Source of the DNA: a phage
Assembly: GCA_015370545.1 (NCBI GenBank)
Contig: GCA_015370545.1_3932.1
DNA length: 64,000 bases
Reading direction: 5' to 3' (one strand)
Below the pieces are notes generated by a model, which searched no databases, was not told where the DNA came from, and saw only the letters and a list, made by a program, of their open reading frames with translations. This document shows positions 2,859 to 17,516 of this stretch, one piece after another. Every line of letters begins with the position of its first letter. The stretch's first letter is position 1. A program made the position numbers and the translations under genes.

Positions 2859-3928
2859 TTAACCAACACCCAATCTTTTTAGGTGGTGAGAGAAAGACAT
2901 TTGACTCACTTAACAAGCACTACCCAAAAATCTTTGAGCTATATAAACAACAAAAAGCGCAAGACTGGTCAGAAGATGAGTTCCCTTTTGAACAATCACG
3001 TCTTGATTTTGAAAGTGTGCCAGCATCAATGTCAGGTGTAATGCTTGAGATTCTTAAGTGGCAGTGGGAAGCAGATACCCAAGTTGCTAAAAGTTTAGCG
3101 TTTGCTTTTGCACCATTCATCTCTGATGACATTTATGCAACTGCAATTATGAAGCAGTCTGAGATTGAAAACCTACACGCCCTGACTTACTCGGAGATTG
3201 TAAGGCAATGTATTAAAAATCCTGAAACAATCTTAGATGAGATTAACCAGAACATTGCTGTACAAGACCGATTAAAAACTGTGAATCGTGTTCTTGAAGA
3301 ATTGCTGGATGAAGGTATAAACTATCGACTGAGTTATGTCCGTGACTCACTTCTGGACAAAGACCCTTTACACTTCCATAAAGTGATTCTGAAAGGTCTA
3401 TTTGCAGTGACTGCACTGGAAGGTATATCTTTTATGGCATCCTTTGCATGTACTTTTGCACTTGATGCTCAAGATAAATTTCAGGGTATTGCTCAAGCTG
3501 TGCAGAAGATTATGCTTGATGAAATCCTTCACACTAAAATTGATATTGAAGTTTTAAAAGAAACTTTAAGAGATGACGAGTGGCAGAAAGCTTTTCAACA
3601 AATTCTTCCAGAGATTAAAGTAATCTTAGATGAAGTAGTTGAAAGTGAAGAGAAATGGTCGTATTATATCTTCTCTGAAGGACGTGCTGTAGTTGGGTTA
3701 AATACAAAACTTCTTCATGAGTGGGTTTACTATAATGCTGCCCCACTGTATGATATGTTTGGCATTCCCAGAGATTTTGTAGCTCCTAAAGAACCACCTT
3801 TGAAGTACATGATTAAGAAGATGGAAATTGATAAAGAGCAGAATGCTAATCAGGAGCAACAGAACGGTGCGTACCTATTGAATACTGTTGTAGATGATTT
3901 GAATAGTGGATTTTTAGAGGTTCCTTAA
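2855..3928 (+). CDS. nrdB: ribonucleotide reductase class I small subunit
   Basis: ferritin-like diiron protein; start taken at ATG 2855 preceded by AAGGAG. Confidence 0.85.
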   Translation: MINQHPIFLGGERKTFDSLNKHYPKIFELYKQQKAQDWSEDEFPFEQSRLDFESVPASMSGVMLEILKWQWEADTQVAKSLAFAFAPFISDDIYATAIMKQSEIENLHALTYSEIVRQCIKNPETILDEINQNIAVQDRLKTVNRVLEELLDEGINYRLSYVRDSLLDKDPLHFHKVILKGLFAVTALEGISFMASFACTFALDAQDKFQGIAQAVQKIMLDEILHTKIDIEVLKETLRDDEWQKAFQQILPEIKVILDEVVESEEKWSYYIFSEGRAVVGLNTKLLHEWVYYNAAPLYDMFGIPRDFVAPKEPPLKYMIKKMEIDKEQNANQEQQNGAYLLNTVVDDLNSGFLEVP

Positions 3929-4417: not shown

Positions 4418-6562
4418 ATGAACAAAGTACAGATTATTAAAAAGAATGGCTCACTTGAAGAACCTGATATCAAAAAAGTTTTAGCAGCAGTAACTAAGTC
4501 AGCTAACAGGGTTGGGTATAAAGAACTTCCACCAGATGTTACCCAAGCTCTTGAGTCAGCATTCATGAGGATTCTGGTGAAGTCCACTAAGCAGAATAAT
4601 TTGCTCATCTCGGTAAATGACATTCACAGTATTGTTGAGGGTGCTTTGGCAGAAGTCAATCACGAGATTTACGAGTCTTACTCAACATATAGAAATTACC
4701 GTAAAGAGGTTGCTCAAAATTGGGATGAGCTTTACCAAAAGACTAGAGACACACTCTTCTTAGGTGACCGTGAAAATGCCAACTTTGACAGCAGTTTAAT
4801 TTCTACAAAAGGTTCAATTATTCGTGGTTATCTGACTAAAGAAATCTTTAAACAATACCATTTAACACCAGAGGAACTTGAAGCCATTGAAAAAGGGTTT
4901 ATCTACATCCATGACTTAAGAGACTTAATTTTTGGTGGTATTAACTGCTGCTTGTTTGACATTGGTAAAGTACTGAAAGGTGGCTTTGAAATGTCTGGCA
5001 TCGAATACTGTGAACCGAAGTCTGTACTGTCAGCCTTACAGGTTATTGGTGACGTAGTACTTTCAGCAACTGCACAGCAATTTGGTGGTTTTACTTTAGC
5101 AGAGATTGATAAGGTACTTGTACCGTATGCTAAGAAGTCTCTACGCTATCATGCTGAGAAAGCATCATCTTATGGTATTCCTAAAGAGCATTACCACAAT
5201 TATGTAATGGAGCAGTTACAAATTGAACTGACTCAGGGTTTTCAGTCACTTGAGATGAAACTAAATACCGTACCTTGTAGCCGTGGTGATTTTGCATTCA
5301 CAACTTTAACATTTGGTTTACTTGACTCAGATATGTCTAATGAGGATAATCGACTCCAATACATGATTGCAAGTACTCTCCTAGATGTTCGTATGAATGG
5401 ACAAGGCAAGAGCAAAAAACCTGTTGTATTCCCTAAACTGGTTTATATTTATGACCAGAAGAGACATGATGAAAATATCTGTCAAGGCCACCTGTACAGT
5501 AAAGCTATCGAGTGTTGCTCTAAAGCGATGTATCCAGATTTCTTAAGTGTGTCTGGTCATGGTGCTGTAGCAGAGGCTTTTGAGCGTTCTGGTAAGGTAA
5601 TTTCACCGATGGGTTGCAGAGCCTTTTTATCTCCATATCTTAATGAGGGTGGAGAAGAGTTCTACGTTGGTCGTGCTAACATTGGTGCTGTATCTTTGAA
5701 CTTACCAATGATTTACCAGTATTCTAAAGAGAATGGTTTAGATTTCTGGAAAGAGCTTGATAAGTACCTAGAGATGATTCGTAGTTTCCATAAGAAACGC
5801 TACGAAATGATTGCTAATATGCCAGCAAGTTCTAACCCTCTTGCATTCACACAAGGTGGTCTGTACAAAGGAACTAAGAAACCTACTGACAAGGTTGGTT
5901 GGGATATTGTGAAGTCCTTCACAGCTTCTTTTGGTGTTACTGCGCTTGATGAGTTGTCTGTTCTTGCTGAAGGTAAACGACTTCATGAAGTTGGAAGCTA
6001 TAGTTTTGCATATGATGTTCTGGCATACATCAACATGAAAACCGAAGAGTTTAAAAATGAAGATGGCTTCTTATATGCCGTCTATGGTACTCCAGCAGAA
6101 TCACTATGTGGGACTCAGCTAAAACAGTTCAGAGATATGTTTGGCGTTATCAAAGGTGTTTCTGACAAGGAATACTTTACAAACAGTTTCCATATGAATG
6201 TTGCAGCAGACATCTCACCATTTGAGAAGCAGGACTTAGAAGAACCATTCTTCCATATCTGTAGAGGCGGTAGAATCCAGTATGTAAGAGTAGCTAACCC
6301 AGAAAACTTATCAGCACTTAAAAGTTGTATTACAAGAGGGATGTTGAAAGGTTTCTATCAGGGACTTAACTTTGACTTAGCAATCTGTGAGCATTGTGGT
6401 AACAGACCAAAGGCTGATGTTGAAGAATGTGAGGTTTGCCATTCACATGATATCTCTGTGATTAACAGGGTGTGTGGGTATCTTGGATGGACTAAGATTA
6501 AAGGTGAATCCCGAATGAACGATGCAAAAATCGCTGAGATTCGTGACAGAGTTTCTATGTAA
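4418..6562 (+). CDS. nrdD: anaerobic ribonucleotide reductase class III
   Basis: 714 aa; C-terminal CxxC...CxxC zinc ribbon and glycyl-radical motif RVCGYLG. Confidence 0.9.
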   Translation: MNKVQIIKKNGSLEEPDIKKVLAAVTKSANRVGYKELPPDVTQALESAFMRILVKSTKQNNLLISVNDIHSIVEGALAEVNHEIYESYSTYRNYRKEVAQNWDELYQKTRDTLFLGDRENANFDSSLISTKGSIIRGYLTKEIFKQYHLTPEELEAIEKGFIYIHDLRDLIFGGINCCLFDIGKVLKGGFEMSGIEYCEPKSVLSALQVIGDVVLSATAQQFGGFTLAEIDKVLVPYAKKSLRYHAEKASSYGIPKEHYHNYVMEQLQIELTQGFQSLEMKLNTVPCSRGDFAFTTLTFGLLDSDMSNEDNRLQYMIASTLLDVRMNGQGKSKKPVVFPKLVYIYDQKRHDENICQGHLYSKAIECCSKAMYPDFLSVSGHGAVAEAFERSGKVISPMGCRAFLSPYLNEGGEEFYVGRANIGAVSLNLPMIYQYSKENGLDFWKELDKYLEMIRSFHKKRYEMIANMPASSNPLAFTQGGLYKGTKKPTDKVGWDIVKSFTASFGVTALDELSVLAEGKRLHEVGSYSFAYDVLAYINMKTEEFKNEDGFLYAVYGTPAESLCGTQLKQFRDMFGVIKGVSDKEYFTNSFHMNVAADISPFEKQDLEEPFFHICRGGRIQYVRVANPENLSALKSCITRGMLKGFYQGLNFDLAICEHCGNRPKADVEECEVCHSHDISVINRVCGYLGWTKIKGESRMNDAKIAEIRDRVSM

Positions 6563-10156: not shown

Positions 10157-10609
10157 ATGTTAAGTTCATTTTACATAGCACTGACTGAGATTCTATATAA
10201 AGAATTTGGTACAGATACCATCTTTGACTCTAATGAGGCTATAAAAGCTCTCAGAAGTGGAAGTGACTGCCTAAGTAAAAGCCCTATAGCAAACATTCGG
10301 TATTACTTGACCACAATGCGTAAAATGGGGCTACTGATGGCTGTAAGTCAGGGAACAAAAGACTGTGCTTCTCTATACCTAAACCAACTAAATAAAATGA
10401 TGATAGAGAGCGACCCACAACTATCAAGACTACTTGATAGTGTTGACAAAACTAATAGGAATACAAGAACATCAAAACCAAAAGGTGAGTTCCTCCCTGA
10501 TGCAAAATACTTTATTGATGAACTAATGTTTGATACCATAGAAGATGCAGTTGAGTATTGCAAAAAGAATATTATTAAGTTGAAAAGAAAGAAAATTATT
10601 TGGGAATAA
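10157..10609 (+). CDS. hypothetical protein, tandem paralog 2
   Basis: 150 aa; paralog of 9659-10123. Confidence 0.5.
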   Translation: MLSSFYIALTEILYKEFGTDTIFDSNEAIKALRSGSDCLSKSPIANIRYYLTTMRKMGLLMAVSQGTKDCASLYLNQLNKMMIESDPQLSRLLDSVDKTNRNTRTSKPKGEFLPDAKYFIDELMFDTIEDAVEYCKKNIIKLKRKKIIWE

Positions 10610-10635: not shown

Positions 10636-11517
10636 ATGAAAACATCTATCCGTGTTACAGTTCATTCACCAACTAAAGGAACTCATGAAGAAGAGTTTAA
10701 CATCATCCAATTTCCTTCTGGTGAGATTGGTGGACACTTTTCGCCAGAGTTTGTTGATTTCACTGCTTATGCAGCATCATCCATCAACAATGTGATTATG
10801 ATTGTAAAAGGTTATGATAAGGATACATTGTTTGCTGTGGCACTTGCTAAAGAAGCAATTGATGATTTAATTCCTCATGGTTATGCTTTAAAGACTGTCA
10901 TCTTTTACTACTTACCAAATGCACGTTATGACCGTCACATGTTTAAAGGCGACGCAGCAGCTTTAAAGGTTTTTGCTAAACAGGTAAATGCAATGGGATT
11001 TGGTGCAGTCTGTGCAGTTGACCCTCACAGCTATGTACCAGATAACCTGTTTAACTGCTTCCAGAGTATTCCTCAAAAGGAAATTGCAGTCCACTATGCA
11101 AATGACCCACTGATTGATTACTTAGTAGCCCCAGATGCAGGTGCTGCTAAGAAGATTGCAGAGACTGCTAAAGAGGTGGATAAACCATATATCACAATGT
11201 CTAAAGTACGCAACCTTAAGACTGGTGAAATTACTGGTATGCGAATCCTTGATGATGTTGATTTGACAGATAAAACCGTCATGATTCTGGATGATATCTG
11301 TGATGGTGGTCGAACCTTCATAGAAGCAGCTAAACATCTTCGTGAAGCAGGTGCAAAACGTGTGGAACTCTATGTAACACACGGTATCTTCTCTAAAGAT
11401 GTTGAAAACCTTCTTGACAATGGCATTGACCACATCTACACTACAAACTCTTTAGGGGAAGCTAAAGACCGTGGCTTAACACATTATGGTCAAGTTACTG
11501 TAGCAAACCTTGATTGA
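10636..11517 (+). CDS. Prs-family pyrophosphokinase (PRPP synthetase-like; possibly ADP-ribose diphosphokinase Adps)
   Basis: ILDDICDGGRTFIEAAKHLREAGAKRV matches the Prs PRPP-binding loop; start at ATG 10636. Confidence 0.75.
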   Translation: MKTSIRVTVHSPTKGTHEEEFNIIQFPSGEIGGHFSPEFVDFTAYAASSINNVIMIVKGYDKDTLFAVALAKEAIDDLIPHGYALKTVIFYYLPNARYDRHMFKGDAAALKVFAKQVNAMGFGAVCAVDPHSYVPDNLFNCFQSIPQKEIAVHYANDPLIDYLVAPDAGAAKKIAETAKEVDKPYITMSKVRNLKTGEITGMRILDDVDLTDKTVMILDDICDGGRTFIEAAKHLREAGAKRVELYVTHGIFSKDVENLLDNGIDHIYTTNSLGEAKDRGLTHYGQVTVANLD

Positions 11518-11525
11518 AACTTTAT

Positions 11526-11548
11526 AGGGGCTTAAAAGCCCCATTTTG
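11526..11548 (+). terminator. intrinsic terminator or attenuator
   Basis: GGGGCT-TAAA-AGCCCC hairpin followed by ATTTTG. Confidence 0.55.
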
Positions 11549-11562
11549 AGAGAGATTAAAAG

Positions 11563-13344
11563 ATGACTAAATCACTTTATGCAGTACCAGCAGGTTTAAA
11601 CGCAGATGCTTACAAATCTGGTCATGTTTACCAGTACCCTAGTGCAACAGAGTACTTGATGTTCAACCTGACACCACGTAGTGACAAATGGTTTAACAGC
11701 CCCTTAGCAATTGATGGTGTAGTAGCTTTTGGTATTCAACGTTTCGTTAAAGATTACTTGATAGACCACTGGAACGCCACTTTCTTTGAACGTGATAAAA
11801 AAGAAGCCATTGATGAAATCTTAGAAGTCATGAATGGTGTTCTGGGTAAAGATGCTATCGGTCGAGAGCATTGGGAAGCACTTCACGACTTAGGTTATCT
11901 ACCAGTTGAAGTATACGCTGTAGAAGAAGGTACAGTTGTTCCTATGCGTGTACCAATGATTGTCTTCCAGAACACTGTTTCAGGTTTCCATTGGGTAGCG
12001 GGATATCTGGAAGATGCTTTCTCTGCTGAGATTTGGAAGGCTTGTACCATTGCAACTATTGCATTGCATTATAAACGCATCTGTAAGAAGTGGGCTGACC
12101 TTACTTGCGACAATGACTTACATTTACCTTATCAGTGCCATGACTTTGCTATGCGTGGTATGTCCGGCTTTACTGATGACGCATTTAACGCTGTAGGCCA
12201 CTTAACCAGCTTTAAAGGGACTGATAGCTTCCCTGCTGTATATACAGCTAAACGCATCTACGGACAGTCTTACCAAGTCTCTGATATTGGTGGTTCTGTA
12301 CCAGCCACTGAACACTCTGTAATGTGTGCAAACATTGCTTGGGAAGGTGGTAATGAGTTGGTTGAAGAAGAAAGACGCTTTAAAGGTGAGTTACAAACCT
12401 TCCGTCGTTTCTTAACAGAAACTTACCCAACGGGTATTGCAAGTGTTGTTTCAGATACTTATAACTTCTGGAGAACTGTGTCAGAAATCTTACCAGCACT
12501 CCGTAAAGAAATTATGGAACGTGATGGCAAACTGGTAATTCGTCCTGACTCTGGAGACCCTGTACACATTGTCACAGGTTATAAAACAATCCACTTAGAG
12601 TGTGCTAAAAAGGCTTATTACGAGCACCTAAGTAAGCTGGAAGCCAGTGACGCAATGCTGAATGCTGTTCTGAACATGAAGCTTGAAAACATCAGCTATG
12701 GTATTGCTGGATGGCTACTGTCAGAAGGCTACGAAATGGTTGTTGACAGAGAAGACTTTGAAGTTGCTGATACAGTGCTGTTGAAGAACGCTTATATGGT
12801 TGGCTCTGCAAACGTTGTAACACGCCCTGTAGCAGAGATTGATGGAGCTATTAAGACCTTGTATAACATCTTTGGAGGAACTATCAACTCTAAAGGTTTT
12901 AAGGTACTGGATGAGCACATTGGACTTATCTATGGTGACTCTATCACGTTGGAACGTGCAAACGAAATCCTGAAGCGTCTGTATGAAATGGGGTTTGCAA
13001 GCTCTAACGTGGTGTTTGGTGTAGGCTCTTACACTTACCAGTACATGACTCGTGACACCTTTGCATTTGCTGTCAAAGCAACTCTTGCAAGCATTGGTGG
13101 CAAAGAGATTATGCTTGCAAAAGACCCTAAAACAGATAGTGGTGTTAAGAAATCTGCCTTTGGTGGTGTAGCACCTATGTGGGATGGTGAGAATTTGAAA
13201 GCTGTAGATGGCTACGGATTCCAGAGCTTTGCAGATGCACTTGACCACCCAGCTTGTGCTTTACGTTTAGTCTTTAGCAACTCTGAGCAGTTCGGTTACA
13301 CATCTCTTGGTGATATTCGAAATAATATTGACAAGCAGCTTTAA
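11563..13344 (+). CDS. nicotinamide phosphoribosyltransferase family protein (NAMPT/NadV-like; possibly Namat)
   Basis: 593 aa; N-terminus MTKSLYAVPAGLNADAYKSGHVYQYP recalled as NAMPT-family-like; adjacent to Prs-like gene. Confidence 0.75.
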   Translation: MTKSLYAVPAGLNADAYKSGHVYQYPSATEYLMFNLTPRSDKWFNSPLAIDGVVAFGIQRFVKDYLIDHWNATFFERDKKEAIDEILEVMNGVLGKDAIGREHWEALHDLGYLPVEVYAVEEGTVVPMRVPMIVFQNTVSGFHWVAGYLEDAFSAEIWKACTIATIALHYKRICKKWADLTCDNDLHLPYQCHDFAMRGMSGFTDDAFNAVGHLTSFKGTDSFPAVYTAKRIYGQSYQVSDIGGSVPATEHSVMCANIAWEGGNELVEEERRFKGELQTFRRFLTETYPTGIASVVSDTYNFWRTVSEILPALRKEIMERDGKLVIRPDSGDPVHIVTGYKTIHLECAKKAYYEHLSKLEASDAMLNAVLNMKLENISYGIAGWLLSEGYEMVVDREDFEVADTVLLKNAYMVGSANVVTRPVAEIDGAIKTLYNIFGGTINSKGFKVLDEHIGLIYGDSITLERANEILKRLYEMGFASSNVVFGVGSYTYQYMTRDTFAFAVKATLASIGGKEIMLAKDPKTDSGVKKSAFGGVAPMWDGENLKAVDGYGFQSFADALDHPACALRLVFSNSEQFGYTSLGDIRNNIDKQL

Positions 13345-13358
13345 AAGTATATGATAAG

Positions 13359-13382
13359 AGGCTCCTACGGGAGCCTTTTTAA
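13359..13382 (+). terminator. intrinsic terminator
   Basis: AGGCTCC-TACG-GGAGCCT hairpin followed by TTTT. Confidence 0.7.
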
Positions 13383-13397
13383 TTTCTGGAGAAGATT

Positions 13398-13733
13398 ATG
13401 AAAATCAAAGAGATGAACATCAACATTGTCTTAGAAGAACGTTGGGAGAATATTAAGAAACCTGAAGATGGTAAAAAGCTCCTTAACAAAATTTTAGTAG
13501 CAGCTAAAGAAGAACTGAATGGCAAGATTGCAGCAGCAGTCACAATAAAAGTTTGTGTAAAAGGTCTTCCAGACAACCACCAATTTGCGCTTGACGAGTT
13601 TAAAAAAAGCTTCTACAATCCAAACAAACAGATGCTTGAAAGTAACTTTGCAGTATCTACAAGTATCGTCCATGACAGAAGCTTTATCCTTTACAAAAAT
13701 ATGAGAGGTGAGTCATGCAAGCATATTGGATAG
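13398..13733 (+). CDS. hypothetical protein
   Basis: 111-aa ORF. Confidence 0.4.
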   Translation: MKIKEMNINIVLEERWENIKKPEDGKKLLNKILVAAKEELNGKIAAAVTIKVCVKGLPDNHQFALDEFKKSFYNPNKQMLESNFAVSTSIVHDRSFILYKNMRGESCKHIG

Positions 13734-13891
13734 AAATTTTACTGTCACTTGGTAGCGTAGCAGTGTTTGTTTACCTTCTTTGCAAGTACTTTGCAGAACA
13801 CAAGAAGTGTGACTACTGTAACGGAGAAGGGTATACAAGAGCAGGTTGTTGCCCTATGTGTGGCGGTTCTGGTAAGATGTTTAATAAGTAA
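13715..13891 (+). CDS. small membrane-anchored zinc-finger protein
   Basis: 58-aa ORF not in the supplied track; SD GAGGTG; N-terminal hydrophobic helix then CDYCNGEG...CPMCGGSG (two CxxCxGxG motifs). Confidence 0.45.
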   Translation: MQAYWIEILLSLGSVAVFVYLLCKYFAEHKKCDYCNGEGYTRAGCCPMCGGSGKMFNK

Positions 13892-13919
13892 TTTAACAGT
13901 AAACTAAGAGGAAAGTATT

Positions 13920-16286
13920 ATGCGCATGGTAAATGACCACGCAGAAGTGATTAAGAGTTCGACTTCTTTAGAGACGTCTCAAGCACAGATTACAATGACA
14001 CCTGAGATGTTCAGCCTTTTGAGTTCTGGTGTATATACATTTAAAGAAAGGGCAGTGATTCGTGAACTGTCATGTAACGCAGTAGATGCTCAGAAAGAAG
14101 CTGGAAAAGAGAAAATCCCATTCCATGTGCATTTACCTACTCGTTTTGAGCCTTACTTCGAAGTTCGTGATTTTGGAACTGGATTGACTCATGATAAAGT
14201 TATGAGTTTGTACCTAAACTACGGGGCTTCTACGAAGAATGACTCTAATGACTACATTGGTGCAATGGGTATCGGCTCAAAGTCACCATTTGCAATTGCT
14301 CAGTCATTCACAGTATCTAGCTATGTTGACGGTGTTGTTAATAAGTACTCTGTTTATCTTGAGAATGGTATCCCTCAAGTAACTAAGCTGACAACTAACC
14401 CAACAAAAGAACCTAATGGTTTAGCTGTACGTGTGGCAGTTGCTGACCACCGTATCTCAAAGTTCTTTGAAGAAGCTGGGAATGTGTACTCATACTTCAC
14501 TGTAAAACCAGAAAGTAATATTGAGTACGACGATGTATTAGCAGATATGAACGTCATTGCCCGTGAAGAAGGTGTTTATGATGCCATGATTCATAAGCAA
14601 AGCTGGCGTTCTGGCGCTAACAGAACAGAGTTTAATGTGGTGATGGGTAACATTGCCTACCCTGTTAACATGGAAGCATTACTTGGAGATGATTTCTTCA
14701 AAGTATTGCCAGAATTTTTCCGTAGGAGCGTAGACCTTGTAAACATCTACATGCCTATTGGTTCAGTTGCTATTGCAGCTTCTCGTGAAGCATTGCAGAT
14801 GAATGACACGACAAAAAATGTTATCATCGAGGCTACTAAAAAGATAACTGAAGCAATTACAAAGGATGTTATCAAGAAAGTTAATAGTCAACCTACACTC
14901 ATGGATGCTGCACAGGCTTATGCTGAGTTACGCTTGAACTCACGAGAGATGTTTAATGCTGTGTGTCCAAAGCTAGAGTGGGGAGGCGTTAAGCTTGATT
15001 CTCTGGAAGAAGAATTACTAAACATTCGTCGTGGAATTATCTACGCAGAAGACGGCTCAGTTATTTATGAACGTGATGGTAAAGGTAATATTAAGGTTGA
15101 TAGGAACGGAAACAACATCCCTAAAGTAGATTATCTTTATAATCCAGTTGCTTATGTTAAGTTCAACTCTTTAGAAAGTAAGATTCGTGCAACAGCACTT
15201 TCCTACACTCAAGAGGCAAGTATGTTCAATATCTTTGGCGTAATGCGCAAAAGCCAAATTGAACAGTTTTTGTTTGTTATCAATGACCGTCGCAATAAAA
15301 ATGGTACTGAGAAGACTGTAGGACGCAACCAAATCTTGCGTGGTGCATGTCGAGACTATGCCAGTGAGTCAAGTCTGTTTCACAGATATAATGGTATTGT
15401 CTTTGTATTCCCTAATGAGGAAGAGCTAGATGATTTAATCAATCTGCACAAACTTGATAAAAGCTTGTTAAAGATTGTGAAGATGTCTGATAAGGAACAC
15501 CATTACCAGCGTAAAGAAGCTGTAAGAGGTGTTGTAAAACTCTGGAAAGCTGTTCCAGCAGAAGGTGTAGCTTCCTATAAAGAGGTTTCAGAAGACTTAG
15601 ATACGATTGAAGAGCCTCAACTTTATATTAAGGCAGTAGGTGACACAGTTGATGGCGAATGTTTTTGCTCATCTCCAGAAGATGTAGCTAAGTCAGTTGC
15701 CAATGTCATTGAAAAGACAGTCTATGTTTTCCGAAAAGCAAATTGGAAAAAGATACCAGAAGACTGGATTGAAGTAGATGAGAAGCTCTTGAACGACAGC
15801 TTAACTGATGTTCACTGGATTAATCATAACAGGTATATGACACGTATCTATATGAATGGTGTCCTAGACCTTACAAGCAGTTGGATTATTGCCAGAAACT
15901 TTACGTTCAATAACAGGAAGATTTCTCGCGGTTATTGCTATTCACGAGACACAAACAAAACTATCTTCTTAGAAGGTAATGAAGATGCTGTTGAGGCAAT
16001 GTTTGGTAAAATCCAATACGTTGCTGCACCGTTTGCATACACTTACACTATTAGTCGGTTGCAAACTTTGAAAGAGTGCCTTGACAACGATACAAAGCTG
16101 TACAAGAAAATTAAGAAAGCTGGTGACCGTATGGTCATTAAGGTGACAAACTATCTTTCAAAAAGAAAACAAGAAAACTTCTTGCTTTCTCATTTAGATT
16201 GGAATAAAGTGTCACCCATCGAAGTGAGTAAGTTCTTAGGCTTTGATGTGAAGTGTGTTCCAGAAGGGACTACAATTTACGATTAA
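13920..16286 (+). CDS. rIIA: rIIA-like protein (GHKL ATPase domain)
   Basis: 788 aa; N-terminal VIRELSCNAVDA and FEVRDFGTGLT resemble the Bergerat ATP-binding fold; followed by an rIIB-sized gene. Confidence 0.6.
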   Translation: MRMVNDHAEVIKSSTSLETSQAQITMTPEMFSLLSSGVYTFKERAVIRELSCNAVDAQKEAGKEKIPFHVHLPTRFEPYFEVRDFGTGLTHDKVMSLYLNYGASTKNDSNDYIGAMGIGSKSPFAIAQSFTVSSYVDGVVNKYSVYLENGIPQVTKLTTNPTKEPNGLAVRVAVADHRISKFFEEAGNVYSYFTVKPESNIEYDDVLADMNVIAREEGVYDAMIHKQSWRSGANRTEFNVVMGNIAYPVNMEALLGDDFFKVLPEFFRRSVDLVNIYMPIGSVAIAASREALQMNDTTKNVIIEATKKITEAITKDVIKKVNSQPTLMDAAQAYAELRLNSREMFNAVCPKLEWGGVKLDSLEEELLNIRRGIIYAEDGSVIYERDGKGNIKVDRNGNNIPKVDYLYNPVAYVKFNSLESKIRATALSYTQEASMFNIFGVMRKSQIEQFLFVINDRRNKNGTEKTVGRNQILRGACRDYASESSLFHRYNGIVFVFPNEEELDDLINLHKLDKSLLKIVKMSDKEHHYQRKEAVRGVVKLWKAVPAEGVASYKEVSEDLDTIEEPQLYIKAVGDTVDGECFCSSPEDVAKSVANVIEKTVYVFRKANWKKIPEDWIEVDEKLLNDSLTDVHWINHNRYMTRIYMNGVLDLTSSWIIARNFTFNNRKISRGYCYSRDTNKTIFLEGNEDAVEAMFGKIQYVAAPFAYTYTISRLQTLKECLDNDTKLYKKIKKAGDRMVIKVTNYLSKRKQENFLLSHLDWNKVSPIEVSKFLGFDVKCVPEGTTIYD

Positions 16287-16298
16287 AGTGTTTGACAA

Positions 16299-16316
16299 GG
16301 GGCTTCAAAGCCCCTT
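16299..16316 (+). terminator. possible terminator hairpin
   Basis: GGGGCT-TCAA-AGCCCC hairpin; weak T tract. Confidence 0.35.
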
Positions 16317-16365
16317 AGAATAGCCTCACAAATTGATTGATTAACTAGCAAGAGAGAGTAATAAG

Positions 16366-17475
16366 ATGACTACTAAAACTAAAGCACAGATTGACGCAGA
16401 AATTTACAAACTGGTAAAAGAAGGTAAGCTGACCAAAACAGCTATTGCACAGAAATTTAACACTTCAACCCGTTCAGTTGGTCGTGCTGTAGAGCGTCAT
16501 GAAGCAACCCTAAAAGGGAATAAAAAGGCAACTTCTACACCAGCTACGAAGACTTTGAAACAAGTTGCTAAGACTTTTAAAAAGAAAGCTGGCAAACAAG
16601 TTGAAAAGGTCGTTAAAGACACTGTACAGAAAGCTCCAGTAAATAAACTGCACGAAGCTATGCAGAAAGATGACAAGATTGAGTACATGATTACTGGTGA
16701 TTCTGTAATTATGACTTATGGTTCAGAATCTGAAATTGTTGAGTCTACTCATCCGAACTATCAAGAGATTGTAGTTCATGTTGTGAAAGGTGAGTTCAAG
16801 AAAGCATTTGAACTGATGAACATTCGTAAGTCTATCGAAAACTTCACTCAGGGTGCTATCACAATCAAAGGCGACAAGCTATTCTACGGTGCTGTTGAGA
16901 TGCGTTCTACTCTGGTTGACCGTATTCTTCACATGATGAAAACTGGTGATAAAGGTTTTGAACGACTTGTAATGTTCTTCGAAAAACTGATGGAAAACCC
17001 ATCTAAAGATTCTGTAGAACAACTTTGGGGATTTGTATCTCACCTTGATGTTGAAATTGATGAAGAAGGTTACATCATTGGTTGGAAGAAAGTCTCTACT
17101 CGTGAAGGAAAGCTGGTTGACTCTCACACCTACAAAGTGCCTAATGATTTGGGTAACATTGTAGAAATGCCACGTTGGATGGTTGATAATAACCGTAACG
17201 TAACTTGCTCTCAAGGTCTTCATGTTGGCGCTTGGGATTATGTTCGTTGCTTCTCAGGTGATACCATCCTGAAGGTTCGTGTCCATCCACGAGATGTTGT
17301 ATCCGTACCAACTGATTACAACGATATGAAGATGCGTTCCTCTCGTTATGAAGTTGCAGCAATCGTTGATAATCAACGTAAAGTGCTGGAAGCATGGGAC
17401 GGTAAGACTGAAGCTTTGCATGTCATCGTTGGCACTGCTGGTGAACTCATCTCTCAACGTAAACGTGAAATCTAA
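16366..17475 (+). CDS. rIIB: rIIB-like protein
   Basis: 369 aa directly downstream of the rIIA-like gene; call is by position and size only. Confidence 0.5.
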   Translation: MTTKTKAQIDAEIYKLVKEGKLTKTAIAQKFNTSTRSVGRAVERHEATLKGNKKATSTPATKTLKQVAKTFKKKAGKQVEKVVKDTVQKAPVNKLHEAMQKDDKIEYMITGDSVIMTYGSESEIVESTHPNYQEIVVHVVKGEFKKAFELMNIRKSIENFTQGAITIKGDKLFYGAVEMRSTLVDRILHMMKTGDKGFERLVMFFEKLMENPSKDSVEQLWGFVSHLDVEIDEEGYIIGWKKVSTREGKLVDSHTYKVPNDLGNIVEMPRWMVDNNRNVTCSQGLHVGAWDYVRCFSGDTILKVRVHPRDVVSVPTDYNDMKMRSSRYEVAAIVDNQRKVLEAWDGKTEALHVIVGTAGELISQRKREI

Positions 17476-17490
17476 TAAGTAATTTCTTAA

Positions 17491-17516
17491 AAGGCTGCTT
17501 CGGCGGCCTTTTTTAT
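17491..17516 (+). terminator. intrinsic terminator
   Basis: AAGGCTGC-TTCG-GCGGCCTT hairpin followed by TTTTTATTT. Confidence 0.7.

Follow-up and report, generated by a model that had tools for sequence, protein, structure and literature searches.

What does the short open reading frame (ORF) directly before rIIA in this phage DNA encode, and what could its product do? The window, that is, the whole 64 kb stretch of DNA that was analysed, is Felixounavirus DNA. An earlier sequence-only reading had singled out a 58-aa ORF in it as an unannotated membrane protein with a DnaJ-type zinc finger, and had suggested a role in host takeover or chaperone interference.

The 58-aa ORF and its annotation

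The ORF starts inside the end of another coding region, and the features at its start are as follows.

13398 to 13733, + strand: upstream 111-aa ORF (phrog_4262, Felix O1 ORF130), sharing its final 19 nt with the beginning of the 58-aa ORF
13705 to 13711, + strand: Shine-Dalgarno (SD) sequence GAGGTGA, 7 nt, within the coding end of the 111-aa ORF; the ATG follows at 13715
13715 to 13891, + strand, stop codon included: the 58-aa ORF, ortholog of Felix O1 ORF131 (Felix01p243) and member of phrog_3931

The product of the ORF is MQAYWIEILLSLGSVAVFVYLLCKYFAEHKKCDYCNGEGYTRAGCCPMCGGSGKMFNK. The good SD sequence, the overlap with the preceding ORF, and the place before rIIA (which begins at 13920) had all been claimed from the sequence and are all borne out. 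The same 19-nt overlap is found in XTG1, Sf17, and SUSP1, and purine-rich SD-like sequences stand equally distant from the start in the orthologs of XTG1, CHB7, Sf17, SUSP1, JSE, and Arno162. An SD sequence inside the end of the upstream ORF is an arrangement typical of translational coupling, and the 58-aa ORF would be translated through coupling to the 111-aa ORF. A programmed frameshift fusion of the two ORFs was rejected: the overlap has no slippery heptamer, and the −1 frame meets a TGA just before the ATG. The AF2 model of the 111-aa protein (pLDDT 65) gave only non-significant IF3-C-like fold matches (E > 0.27).

Residues 1-58 of the protein matched the phrog_3931 profile from end to end, at positions 1-59 of 59, with E 8e-34 and 116.6 bits. 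The 58-aa protein differs from the Felix O1 ORF131 protein by one residue, F26Y. Further orthologs are SUSP1 agp080, Sf17 gp109, and phiEa21-4 gp117, and RB49p046 is grouped with the phrog_3931 orthologs or close homologs. The Felix O1, SUSP1, and RB49 proteins show no difference in kind from the protein of the window. Existing records call it a 'hypothetical membrane protein' in Felix O1 and a 'putative membrane protein' in XTG1, and hundreds of genomes annotate it as "hypothetical/membrane protein". The ORF is thus missing only from the ORF track supplied to the earlier reading, which had a 60-aa cut-off; 'unannotated' is right for that track but not for Felix O1, XTG1, and many other phages. 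The predicted zinc knuckle of phrog_3931 proteins is unmentioned in database records, and the membrane-tethered single-zinc knuckle is new at the level of annotation. Considered by itself, the ORF adds another to the conserved 'hypothetical membrane protein' genes of phages.

Conservation and selection

The earlier reading depended on amino acid conservation in related phages, and such conservation was found. Within Felixounavirus, dN was 0.020 and dS was 0.30 (dN/dS of about 0.07), and the variable sites were distributed 6/4/21 over the three codon positions, so that 21 of the 31 were at the third. Between genera, dN/dS was 0.2-0.3. Selection on the motif codons was examined in 42 loci with an intact ORF, which reduced to 30 unique nucleotide sequences. 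All seven motif codons vary synonymously among these (TGT/TGC, GGN), with zero replacements. The encoded residues, four Cys and three Gly (C32, C35, G37, C46, C49, G51, and G53), are invariant in 20 diverse homologs, unlike the transmembrane (TM) segment, which is freely variable. By these measures of codon and residue change, the 58-aa ORF is a real coding gene under strong purifying selection.

Felixounavirus, Suspvirus, Mooglevirus, Kolesnikvirus, and Arno162 all have an intact ortholog, and the gene order NARP1 – small genes – 58-aa ORF – rIIA – rIIB is kept in four Ounavirinae genera. All of the IMG/VR Ounavirinae loci having DNA upstream of rIIA (24/24) carry a 58- or 59-aa ORF before it. 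A search within 2.5 kb of divergent rIIA genes found such an ORF at 0 of 10 distant loci. The Krischvirus (JSE) homolog does not lie near rII; it adjoins nrdH and overlaps the end of this redoxin gene. As part of the joint explanation given below, we regard the ORF with moderate confidence as an accessory gene conserved across Ounavirinae.

Single-base frameshifts in a few records, phiWec177 and the 'UNVERIFIED' GE_vB_B3, would fit a spurious ORF or a non-functional remnant. Each, however, is a separate loss of 1 nt from sequence that is otherwise conserved, and one comes from an unverified assembly; sequencing error is therefore the probable cause. The strong purifying selection and the invariant motif effectively refute a spurious ORF or remnant, an explanation that is almost certainly wrong. 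Pseudogenisation was rejected on the same grounds. An apparent duplication of ~350 bp in TP1-type phages turned out to be an unrelated extra gene, with no duplicate.

Membrane helix and topology

The protein consists of a membrane helix followed by a pair of CxxCxGxG motifs, the layout that had been claimed from its sequence.

13727 to 13783, + strand: predicted TM helix, residues 5-23, WIEILLSLGSVAVFVYLLC, mean Kyte-Doolittle 2.1
13808 to 13831, + strand: first putative zinc knuckle, CDYCNGEG (C32, C35, G37, G39), with C32, C35, and G37 invariant
13850 to 13873, + strand: second putative zinc knuckle, CPMCGGSG, with C46, C49, G51, and G53 invariant

The hydrophobic N-terminal helix of the earlier reading agrees with the AF2 secondary structure, which has a helix at residues 3-28 and only short strands afterwards. 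In 15 family members, the mean Kyte-Doolittle value ranges from 2.0 to 3.05, and the N flank contains an acidic residue and 0 K/R. The protein of the window has 0 K/R on the N side of the helix versus 3 within 15 residues on the C side, and 14 of the 15 members carry 1-4 K/R just after the helix. The stretch of 15 residues that follows the helix has a net acidic character in the orthologs from Mooglevirus and Suspvirus (1 K/R vs 5 D/E), so the topology call depends on K/R counts alone. A signal-peptide-like n-region was not found in the N-termini of the family. The C-terminal tail is basic, GKMFNK in the window protein and GKKFKK as a variant. On the basis of the K/R bias, the product is predicted to be a bitopic inner-membrane protein with a single helix in the N-out/C-in orientation, which supplies the topology prediction proposed with the earlier reading. 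An N-terminus of 4-6 residues would face the periplasm, one TM helix of residues ~5-23 would cross the membrane, and the C-terminal ~35 residues would be cytoplasmic.

The zinc knuckle

The claimed CDYCNGEG and CPMCGGSG repeats begin at nt 13808 and nt 13850, and translating the 64 kb window in all six frames yields no CxxCxGxG match besides these two. Markov-1 random 64-kb sequences contained a mean of 0.195 single motifs, and a pair appeared in 0 of 200. The overall spacing of the four Cys residues, C-x2-C-x10-C-x2-C, is identical to that of Anti-TRAP. The protein aligns without gaps over 25 residues to Bacillus licheniformis Anti-TRAP (3lcz), and it aligns ungapped to DnaJ motifs 3-4, half of the Cys-rich domain, as well. 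The family profile matched both repeat pairs of the Escherichia coli DnaJ Cys-rich domain (1exk, E 2.6e-9), and it matched Anti-TRAP 3lcz with E 0.01. TIGR02349 DnaJ_bact gave E 0.0025. Against PF00684, the protein scored 16.8 bits (E 0.0083), short of the gathering threshold of 32.7, and the match covered only the final 32 positions of the 65-position profile. PF15777 Anti-TRAP reached 9.3 bits, below its cut-off of 32 (E 1.5). Pfam and NCBIfam scans of the protein returned only sub-threshold matches to DnaJ, DUF5351, and Anti-TRAP, with no J domain.

The AF2 model of the 58-aa protein has a pLDDT of 80 and was built on a shallow alignment of 9 sequences. Its top Foldseek matches in the PDB are the Anti-TRAP structures 3ld0, 2bx9, and 3lcz (rmsd 1.1-1.3 Å over 29 residues). 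The best rmsd, 1.1 Å over 29 residues, was to 3ld0, and the Foldseek probability was 1.0 for 3ld0 and 2bx9; the E-values (0.06-0.15) are weak because the knuckle domain is tiny. The invariant Cys residues and the fold match suggest that C32/C35 and C46/C49 form one predicted Zn(Cys)4 knuckle, which in spacing and predicted fold is closest to the single-zinc Anti-TRAP module. The label of a DnaJ-type zinc finger therefore holds for the type of motif and for the 1exk match but not for the domain as a whole, with two of four repeats and a PF00684 score below the cut-off. Judged by its domain content, the protein is no J-protein.

Comparison with known zinc-knuckle proteins

Anti-TRAP (AT, RtpA/YczA) of Bacillus (PF15777; 2bx9, 3lcz, 3ld0) is the best structural match and has a similar size (~53-58 residues), a single zinc ribbon with two knuckles, and the same Cys spacing. 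It acts purely by binding TRAP, and we know of no TRAP in an enterobacterial host. Anti-TRAP is soluble and trimerises via a C-terminal helix, residues 38-50 (PMC11255114), whereas the 58-aa protein has an N-terminal TM helix instead. The DnaJ/Hsp40 Cys-rich domain (PF00684; 1exk) shares the CxxCxGxG repeat type, but it has four repeats and two interleaved zinc sites in place of the two repeats and one predicted site of the 58-aa protein. J-proteins also have a J domain with an HPD motif and, in type I, a G/F region and C-terminal substrate-binding domains, none of which is present here. The plant protein FIP (At5g02160) has one membrane helix and then a C-terminal finger of two CxxCxGxG motifs that faces the stroma, the equivalent of the cytoplasm, and it works by binding the membrane protein FtsH5 (PMC5915565). 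LQY1 and CYO1 are also membrane-anchored plant proteins with a DnaJ-like zinc finger that lack a J domain. These three are eukaryotic, plastid-targeted, and larger, and the likeness to FIP is architectural, by description only.

Features of a catalyst are absent from the knuckle domain, and its characterised relatives all dock onto a protein: Anti-TRAP onto TRAP, the DnaJ Cys-rich domain onto substrates, BSD2 onto RbcL, and plant FIP onto FtsH5. The mechanism is thus most likely stoichiometric.

The rII locus and its transcription

The 58-aa ORF lies between two groups of anti-defence genes that are read in the same direction.

10636 to 13344, + strand: NARP1 pair, Adps (prs-like) at 10636-11517 and Namat (NAMPT-like) at 11563-13344; anti-defence
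13328 to 13355, + strand: sigma-70-like promoter TTGACA-16-TATGAT, 11/12 matches, straddling the Namat stop codon
13356 to 13379, + strand: GC-rich hairpin and then a T-run, resembling a terminator, immediately downstream of the promoter
13920 to 16286, + strand: rIIA, 788 aa, the next gene after the 58-aa ORF
16366 to 17475, + strand: rIIB, farther downstream

Felixounavirus, Suspvirus, and Mooglevirus all keep the promoter sequence, Arno162 has a comparable layout, and the hairpin core GGCTCC-TACG-GGAGCC is invariant across genera. Transcription is predicted to start near 13362, which falls in the 5' arm of the hairpin. Together, the promoter and the hairpin are predicted to set the rII unit apart from NARP1 as a separate upstream transcription unit. 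The 58-aa ORF would then be part of a sigma-70-driven unit running on into rIIA. An Rfam scan of positions 13000-14300 gave no match at any gathering score.

The NARP1 pair corresponds to g79/g80 of Bas63 (bioRxiv 10.1101/2024.02.11.579819; PMC11482910) and counters SIR2-HerA (bioRxiv 10.1101/2024.02.11.579819). rIIA/rIIB act against RexAB and qatABCD, and the rIIA/B genes of SUSP1 and Bas63 are functional counter-defence genes. Because the 58-aa ORF lies in the rII transcription unit beside the NARP1 anti-defence genes, the host takeover role suggested earlier is plausible from genomic context. This position, directly after the NAD-reconstitution genes of NARP1, makes the ORF matter slightly more than average. 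A PADLOC scan, which covers defence-system and not counter-defence proteins, found no match for the 58-aa protein.

Functional data are available for the SUSP1 ortholog. In a CRISPRi-ART screen that used a laboratory host (PMC11879866 supplement), agp080 knockdown had a fitness score of 1.05 (p 0.11) and fell into the class 'Not Fit', and the gene was thus shown to be dispensable on that host in one screen. The upstream neighbours scored −0.64 and −0.49 and rIIA scored 1.83 (PMC11879866). The small size of the ORF, its non-essentiality in this screen, and the four point-mutation targets make it easy to study genetically.

Possible functions of the 58-aa protein

The analysis shows a real gene with a conserved motif, an assigned fold class, conserved synteny, and an ortholog that a laboratory host does not require, whereas zinc binding, topology, translation, a protein-binding role, and the identity of a partner are inferred. 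We consider it reasonably probable that the ORF, within the sigma-70-driven rII unit, encodes a zinc module that is tethered to the membrane, binds another protein, and is dispensable, with an accessory role in takeover or counter-defence. In the cytoplasm, C32/C35 and C46/C49 would together build a single Zn(Cys)4 knuckle, like Anti-TRAP or the DnaJ Cys-rich domain in type, ahead of the short basic tail. The TM helix would hold this knuckle against the inner membrane on its cytoplasmic side. There the knuckle may bind a membrane-proximal phage or host protein and recruit, sequester, or modulate it in the early or middle phase of infection. Such a role would be an accessory rather than a core function.

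A more specific but unlikely alternative is that the protein is a third, lineage-specific rII component, whose helix anchors and whose knuckle docks RIIA (with RIIB) at the inner membrane. Its purpose would be to counter RexAB- or Qat-type abortive infection via RIIA as a GHKL/HSP90-like ATPase. In every Ounavirinae genus examined, the ORF stands directly before rIIA and shares its predicted transcription unit, an arrangement present at all 24 loci that have upstream DNA. ATP-binding models of HSP90/GHKL and of sacsin match the N-terminus of RIIA, and the SUSP1 and Bas63 rIIA/B genes work in counter-defence. The agp080 score also lies above those of the upstream neighbours and nearer that of rIIA, which may be a polar effect. 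Adjacency is weak evidence, however, because whole-genome synteny is conserved in the subfamily. Co-occurrence with rIIA/rIIB does not extend to independent lineages, with 0 of 10 distant loci carrying the ORF and the Krischvirus homolog located away from rII. PhageMaP named only g84/g85 as counters of qatABCD (PMC11482910); the Bas63 ortholog of the 58-aa ORF is probably g83. The T4 gene rIIA.1, which takes the equivalent position, was considered as a positional analogue and rejected; it is unrelated and has no Cys and no TM segment. If this alternative were true, rII would be a three-component counter-defence machine in Ounavirinae, and the ORF would offer a small, tractable handle on the long-unsolved rII mechanism.

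Less likely than an rII partner, and on the whole quite improbable, is a role in lysis: the protein would be the holin that Felix O1-like phages are missing, an antiholin, or a factor that times lysis, and would permeabilise or regulate the inner membrane as infection ends. Felix O1-like phages are used therapeutically. Whichard et al. 2010 placed Felix O1 gp131 among five holin candidates for its TM segment and charged C-terminus (PMC3185647), and Felix O1 and SUSP1 are still without an identifiable holin according to the CRISPRi-ART supplement (PMC11879866). The 58-aa protein resembles a holin in its small size, its strong single TM helix, and its charged hydrophilic C-terminus with the basic tail. 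In the published Felix O1 RT-PCR table, from which ORF131 is absent, the lysin ORF35 peaks at 25 min, as do the neighbours ORF130 and ORF1, so that timing is compatible with a holin. Selection, however, acts on the Cys/Gly knuckle while the TM sequence varies freely, and holins are, to our knowledge, not characterised by a Cys4 zinc knuckle, which is predicted here to be cytoplasmic. Homologs also occur in RB49/JSE-type phages, which have a T4-type holin t. The gene is away from the lysin; the first half of the Ro111lw record has the lysin alone (5860-6324, far from the 58-aa locus) and no holin annotation. The 'Not Fit' class of the SUSP1 knockdown speaks weakly against a holin because the screen did not, as a rule, pick up lysis genes (PMC11879866).

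The opposite topology, N-in/C-out with a periplasmic Cys-rich domain, is very unlikely. It would make the protein a thiol-disulfide (redox) module or a disulfide-stabilised ectodomain, for example in superinfection exclusion. Distant CxxCxGxG proteins with signal-peptide or lipobox N-termini (P0085 and P0103; L019/L022), the net acidic C flank in Mooglevirus and Suspvirus, the overlap of the Krischvirus homolog with nrdH, and the oxidoreductase activity reported for the DnaJ Cys-rich domain and the plant CYO1/LQY1 fingers (cited in PMC5915565) are consistent with this orientation. However, the distribution of K/R, none before the helix and 1-4 right after it in 14 of 15 members, favours the reverse, and exporting a C-terminal domain needs a signal-anchor n-region, which is not present. 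The invariant glycines of CxxCxGxG also match the zinc-knuckle geometry seen in Anti-TRAP.

Chaperone interference, proposed in the sequence-only reading, is highly improbable. The protein would in this case imitate the DnaJ Cys-rich domain from a membrane tether and titrate DnaK or DnaJ substrates. The 1exk and TIGR02349 matches point to it. Neighbouring repeats bind separate zinc ions in the DnaJ structure 1exk, and a protein with two repeats therefore cannot reproduce either DnaJ zinc centre as it natively occurs. With two of four repeats, the sub-cut-off PF00684 score, a fold nearer to Anti-TRAP, and neither a J domain nor a G/F region nor the C-terminal domains of DnaJ, the proposal is left without specific support.

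To a similarly slight degree, the protein might modulate the host membrane protease FtsH (or HflKC), a possibility modelled on plant FIP binding FtsH5 and on lambda CIII inhibiting FtsH. The shared architecture with FIP, a TM helix and one cytoplasm- or stroma-facing finger of two CxxCxGxG motifs, the binding of FIP to FtsH5 (PMC5915565), and a weak Foldseek match to a subunit of the Ycf2-FtsHi complex (8xqw_R, probability 0.16) suggest this possibility, but it is an analogy only and the 8xqw_R match is not significant.

Distant CxxCxGxG proteins

Word-indexed homolog searches returned close relatives only. An exhaustive profile search gave 1225 matches, which, beyond a handful of proteins with a TM segment and one knuckle, were generic multi-repeat CxxCxGxG proteins. 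The viral-contig loci L019-L027 were considered as orthologs and rejected, since they are heterogeneous and have the motif alone in common. Their contents include lipoprotein-like proteins, one true phage DnaJ, and large polyproteins.

A conserved ORF upstream of rIIA

The window belongs to a Felixounavirus (Ounavirinae), and the kilobase around its 58-aa ORF shares ~98% identity with the O157 typing phages 8, 11, and 12 of E. coli. We conclude that this short ORF is a real gene.

13715-13891, + strand: 58-aa ORF, product MQAYWIEILLSLGSVAVFVYLLCKYFAEHKKCDYCNGEGYTRAGCCPMCGGSGKMFNK
13705-13711, + strand: Shine-Dalgarno sequence GAGGTGA, 5' of the ORF

The ORF overlaps the end of the 111-aa ORF (13398-13733) by 19 nt, and rIIA begins 29 nt past its stop codon. 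CxxCxGxG occurs twice in it (nt 13808 and 13850) and nowhere else in the 64-kb window translated in all six frames, whereas first-order Markov sequences of window size (n=200) contained a mean of 0.195 single motifs and never a pair. The sequence-only reading had described the ORF, its ribosome-binding site, the overlap, the position before rIIA, and both motifs, all of which are present. It had also called the ORF unannotated, which is correct for the supplied track, where ORFs below 60 aa are cut off, but not for the databases. Felix O1 ORF131/Felix01p243 ('hypothetical membrane protein') is the same ORF with one residue different, XTG1 labels it 'putative membrane protein', and SUSP1 agp080 and Sf17 gp109 are its counterparts. 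The protein is a member of phrog_3931 (function unknown), which it matches over its full length (E 8e-34), and tblastn found it at >90% identity in ~215 phage records. None of the database annotations inspected mentions a zinc-finger motif. In the examined locus of Enterobacteria phage CHB7 (MK562504; locus 3001-3253), an out-of-frame 46-aa 'gp2' (locus 3113-3253) is annotated in place of the conserved transmembrane and zinc-knuckle ORF (locus 3001-3177), which is a mis-annotation in the public record.

Conservation in related phages, which the earlier reading had named as a check, is evident at the amino-acid level. Within Felixounavirus, mean dN is 0.020 and mean dS 0.30 (ratio ~0.07), and codon positions 1/2/3 hold 6/4/21 of the variable sites. 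In comparisons between genera, where dS is saturated, dN/dS comes to 0.2-0.3. Among 30 unique nucleotide versions from 42 loci, each of the seven motif codons (C32, C35, G37, C46, C49, G51, and G53) varies synonymously and none carries a replacement. Orthologs of 52-60 aa with unchanged architecture occur in Suspvirus (SUSP1, CHB7), Mooglevirus (Sf17, Citrobacter phages), Kolesnikvirus (phiEa21-4 gp117), and Pectobacterium phage Arno162, and RB49/JSE-type T-even phages have a 52-aa homolog. In 20 diverse members those seven residues and M1 are invariant, G39, G44, P47, and K54 are nearly so, and the N-terminal segment keeps its hydrophobicity with variable sequence. Independent single-base deletions in phiWec177 and GE_vB_B3 give a 63-aa frameshifted product ending ...LISNLTVN. 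These few copies are probably sequencing errors, the simplest explanation, because the flanking sequence is otherwise conserved and the GE_vB_B3 record is flagged UNVERIFIED.

Predicted membrane topology and zinc module

Residues 5-23 are strongly hydrophobic (mean Kyte-Doolittle 2.1; family range 2.0-3.05). In 15 family members the N-terminal flank never contains Lys or Arg and usually has an acidic residue, and the 15 residues past the helix contain 1-4 Lys/Arg, Arno162 being ambiguous. By the positive-inside rule, this flank bias predicts an N-out/C-in protein with a cytoplasmic Cys-rich domain, with the caveat that the Mooglevirus and Suspvirus orthologs are net acidic right after the helix. 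A Zn(Cys)4 site would be chemically plausible in the cytoplasm. The AlphaFold2 model, built from a 9-sequence alignment, has a pLDDT of 80 and consists of a helix (residues 3-28) and, after it, short hairpins.

The top Foldseek matches in the PDB were to Bacillus Anti-TRAP (3ld0, 2bx9, 3lcz; rmsd 1.1-1.3 Å over 29 residues, probability 1.0); the very small size of the domain accounts for their weak E-values (0.06-0.15). The DnaJA2, DNAJA3, and BSD2 fingers came next. The family profile matches the E. coli DnaJ Cys-rich domain (1exk, E 2.6e-9) and Anti-TRAP (E 0.01). Both B. licheniformis Anti-TRAP (TCPNCNGSGREEPEPCPKCLGKGVI) and DnaJ repeats 3-4 give ungapped alignments with the last 35 residues. 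The C-x2-C-x10-C-x2-C spacing is identical to that of Anti-TRAP. However, the protein scores 9.3 vs 32 bits for Anti-TRAP (Pfam) and lacks its C-terminal trimerisation helix; for the DnaJ Cys-rich domain it scores 16.8 vs 32.7 bits, with two of four repeats and no J domain. It would work like Anti-TRAP but is a member of neither family. Since neighbouring repeats in DnaJ (1exk) bind different zinc ions whereas the two knuckles of Anti-TRAP share one, the two-repeat protein is best modelled on Anti-TRAP. The interpretation offered by the sequence-only reading is supported in part: its membrane-tethered zinc finger holds, as a hydrophobic helix plus a CxxCxGxG knuckle resembling Anti-TRAP and DnaJ.

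The architecture is not new, because plants have membrane-anchored J-less CxxCxGxG fingers; Arabidopsis FIP matches it in both arrangement and orientation (PMC5915565). A phage example conservedly linked to rII is uncharacterised, and our literature search turned up no publication that describes an Anti-TRAP-like or membrane-anchored CxxCxGxG protein from a phage. Two distant proteins from the profile search (P0085, P0103) and two viral loci (L019, L022) carry the same kind of CxxCxGxG pair behind signal-peptide-like or lipobox N-termini, an indication that the module also occurs in exported form, which one would not expect of a Cys4 zinc site.

Possible functions

The domain has neither the size nor the features for catalysis, and all characterised relatives of the module work by docking to a partner protein: Anti-TRAP to TRAP (PMC11255114), FIP to FtsH5, a membrane protease (PMC5915565), the DnaJ Cys-rich domain to substrates, and BSD2, one of the PDB matches, to RbcL. 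For these reasons a stoichiometric role is favoured. The helix would tether a single zinc knuckle to the inner membrane on its cytoplasmic side, and there the knuckle may bind a membrane-proximal phage or host protein in the early or middle phase, with an accessory counter-defence or takeover function as the outcome. The gene and structure part of this proposal is very probable; the protein-binding accessory role is tentative and somewhat short of an even chance. We put the proposal as a whole at evens.

It is unlikely that the protein serves the rII module as a third component peculiar to this lineage. The intact ORF lies upstream of rIIA in 24/24 Ounavirinae IMG/VR loci that include that DNA, whereas none of ten loci with distant rIIA (32-35% identity) has a paired-CxxCxGxG ORF within 2.5 kb. 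T4 rIIA.1, considered as a counterpart, is unrelated, and the 52-aa Krischvirus homolog in JSE (locus 2495-2653) shares 11 nt with the 3' end of nrdH, a glutaredoxin-like gene, and lies ahead of gene 55.2, a context unlike that in Ounavirinae. The linkage therefore has no exception inside the subfamily but does not extend to rIIA genes in general. On RexAB hosts SUSP1 requires its rIIA/rIIB (PMC11879866) and Bas63 rIIA/rIIB counter qatABCD by PhageMaP (PMC11482910). In the transcriptome-wide SUSP1 CRISPRi-ART screen, agp080 had a score of 1.05 (p 0.11) and was classed 'Not Fit', and rIIA was 'Semi-Fit' (PMC11879866); apart from this score, neither of the two papers (PMC11879866, PMC11482910) says anything about the ORF.

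A holin or lysis-timing factor is quite unlikely. Whichard et al. named Felix O1 gp131 in 2010 as one of five possible holins, purely from its transmembrane segment and charged C-terminus (PMC3185647). The CRISPRi-ART authors remark that Felix O1-like phages have no identifiable holin so far and that lysis genes did not score in their screen (PMC11879866). In the Felix O1 RT-PCR table, from which ORF131 is absent, ORFs 127-130 and ORF1 (rIIA) reach their maximum at 25 min and ORF2 (rIIB) at 10 min (PMC3185647). A periplasmic redox or ectodomain topology, opposite to that predicted from the flank bias, is highly unlikely. Interference with DnaK/DnaJ, the chaperone role raised by the earlier reading, found no specific support and is as improbable as modulation of FtsH (compare FtsH5, the FIP partner); both have very slim chances. 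A spurious ORF is scarcely credible given the codon-level conservation.

Gene neighbourhood

10636-11517: prs-like gene (Adps), upstream of the 58-aa ORF
11563-13344: NAMPT-like gene (Namat), upstream of the 58-aa ORF
13328-13355: near-consensus sigma-70 promoter, TTGACA-16-TATGAT, straddling the Namat stop
13356-13379: terminator-like GC hairpin and T-run directly after the promoter, core GGCTCC-TACG-GGAGCC
16292-16321: strong promoter-like site before rIIB
17489-17512: terminator-like site after rIIB

The first two genes are the NARP1 (Adps/Namat) counter-defence pair. In Bas63, a Felixounavirus, g79/g80 form this NAD+-reconstitution pathway, which protects against SIR2-HerA and further defences that deplete NAD (bioRxiv 10.1101/2024.02.11.579819; PMC11482910). 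For Adps, the listed TTG start at 10600 is probably wrong; an ATG at 10636 (MKTSIRV...) fits the 882-nt CDS annotated in XTG1 and Felix O1.

The hairpin core is invariant among Ounavirinae genera, and the promoter-hairpin layout is kept in Felixounavirus, Suspvirus, and Mooglevirus, with a similar one in Arno162. The hairpin would end NARP1 transcripts, and transcripts from the promoter would begin within its 5' arm and run into the 111-aa ORF, the 58-aa ORF, and rIIA. Because transcripts started at the promoter would lack that arm, the element could stop NARP1 read-through while the rII unit starts. The overlap of the 111-aa and 58-aa ORFs is equally long in XTG1, Sf17, and SUSP1, which fits translational coupling.

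NCBIfam models of the HSP90-family/GHKL (E 3e-11) and sacsin ATP-binding-like (E 4e-7) types match the N-terminal ~100 residues of RIIA (13920-16286), although none reaches its cut-off. The 111-aa ORF (phrog_4262) is conserved, and its low-confidence AlphaFold2 model (pLDDT 65) has a beta-alpha-beta-alpha layout; a fold search with it returned only a likeness to the C-terminal domain of IF3, short of significance. Some Felixounaviruses, namely E. coli O157 typing phage 1 (locus 1599-1943), TP15, and fjerdesal, have an additional 114-aa gene that separates Namat from the 111-aa gene and accounts for a ~350-bp gap in megablast matches; its origin as a duplicate of the 111-aa gene was rejected (BLASTP E 0.11). 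P0168, a 116-aa protein from metagenome assemblies, is an in-frame fusion in which ~60 N-terminal Adps residues are followed by the C-terminal half of the 111-aa protein, and represents a natural deletion removing most of NARP1.
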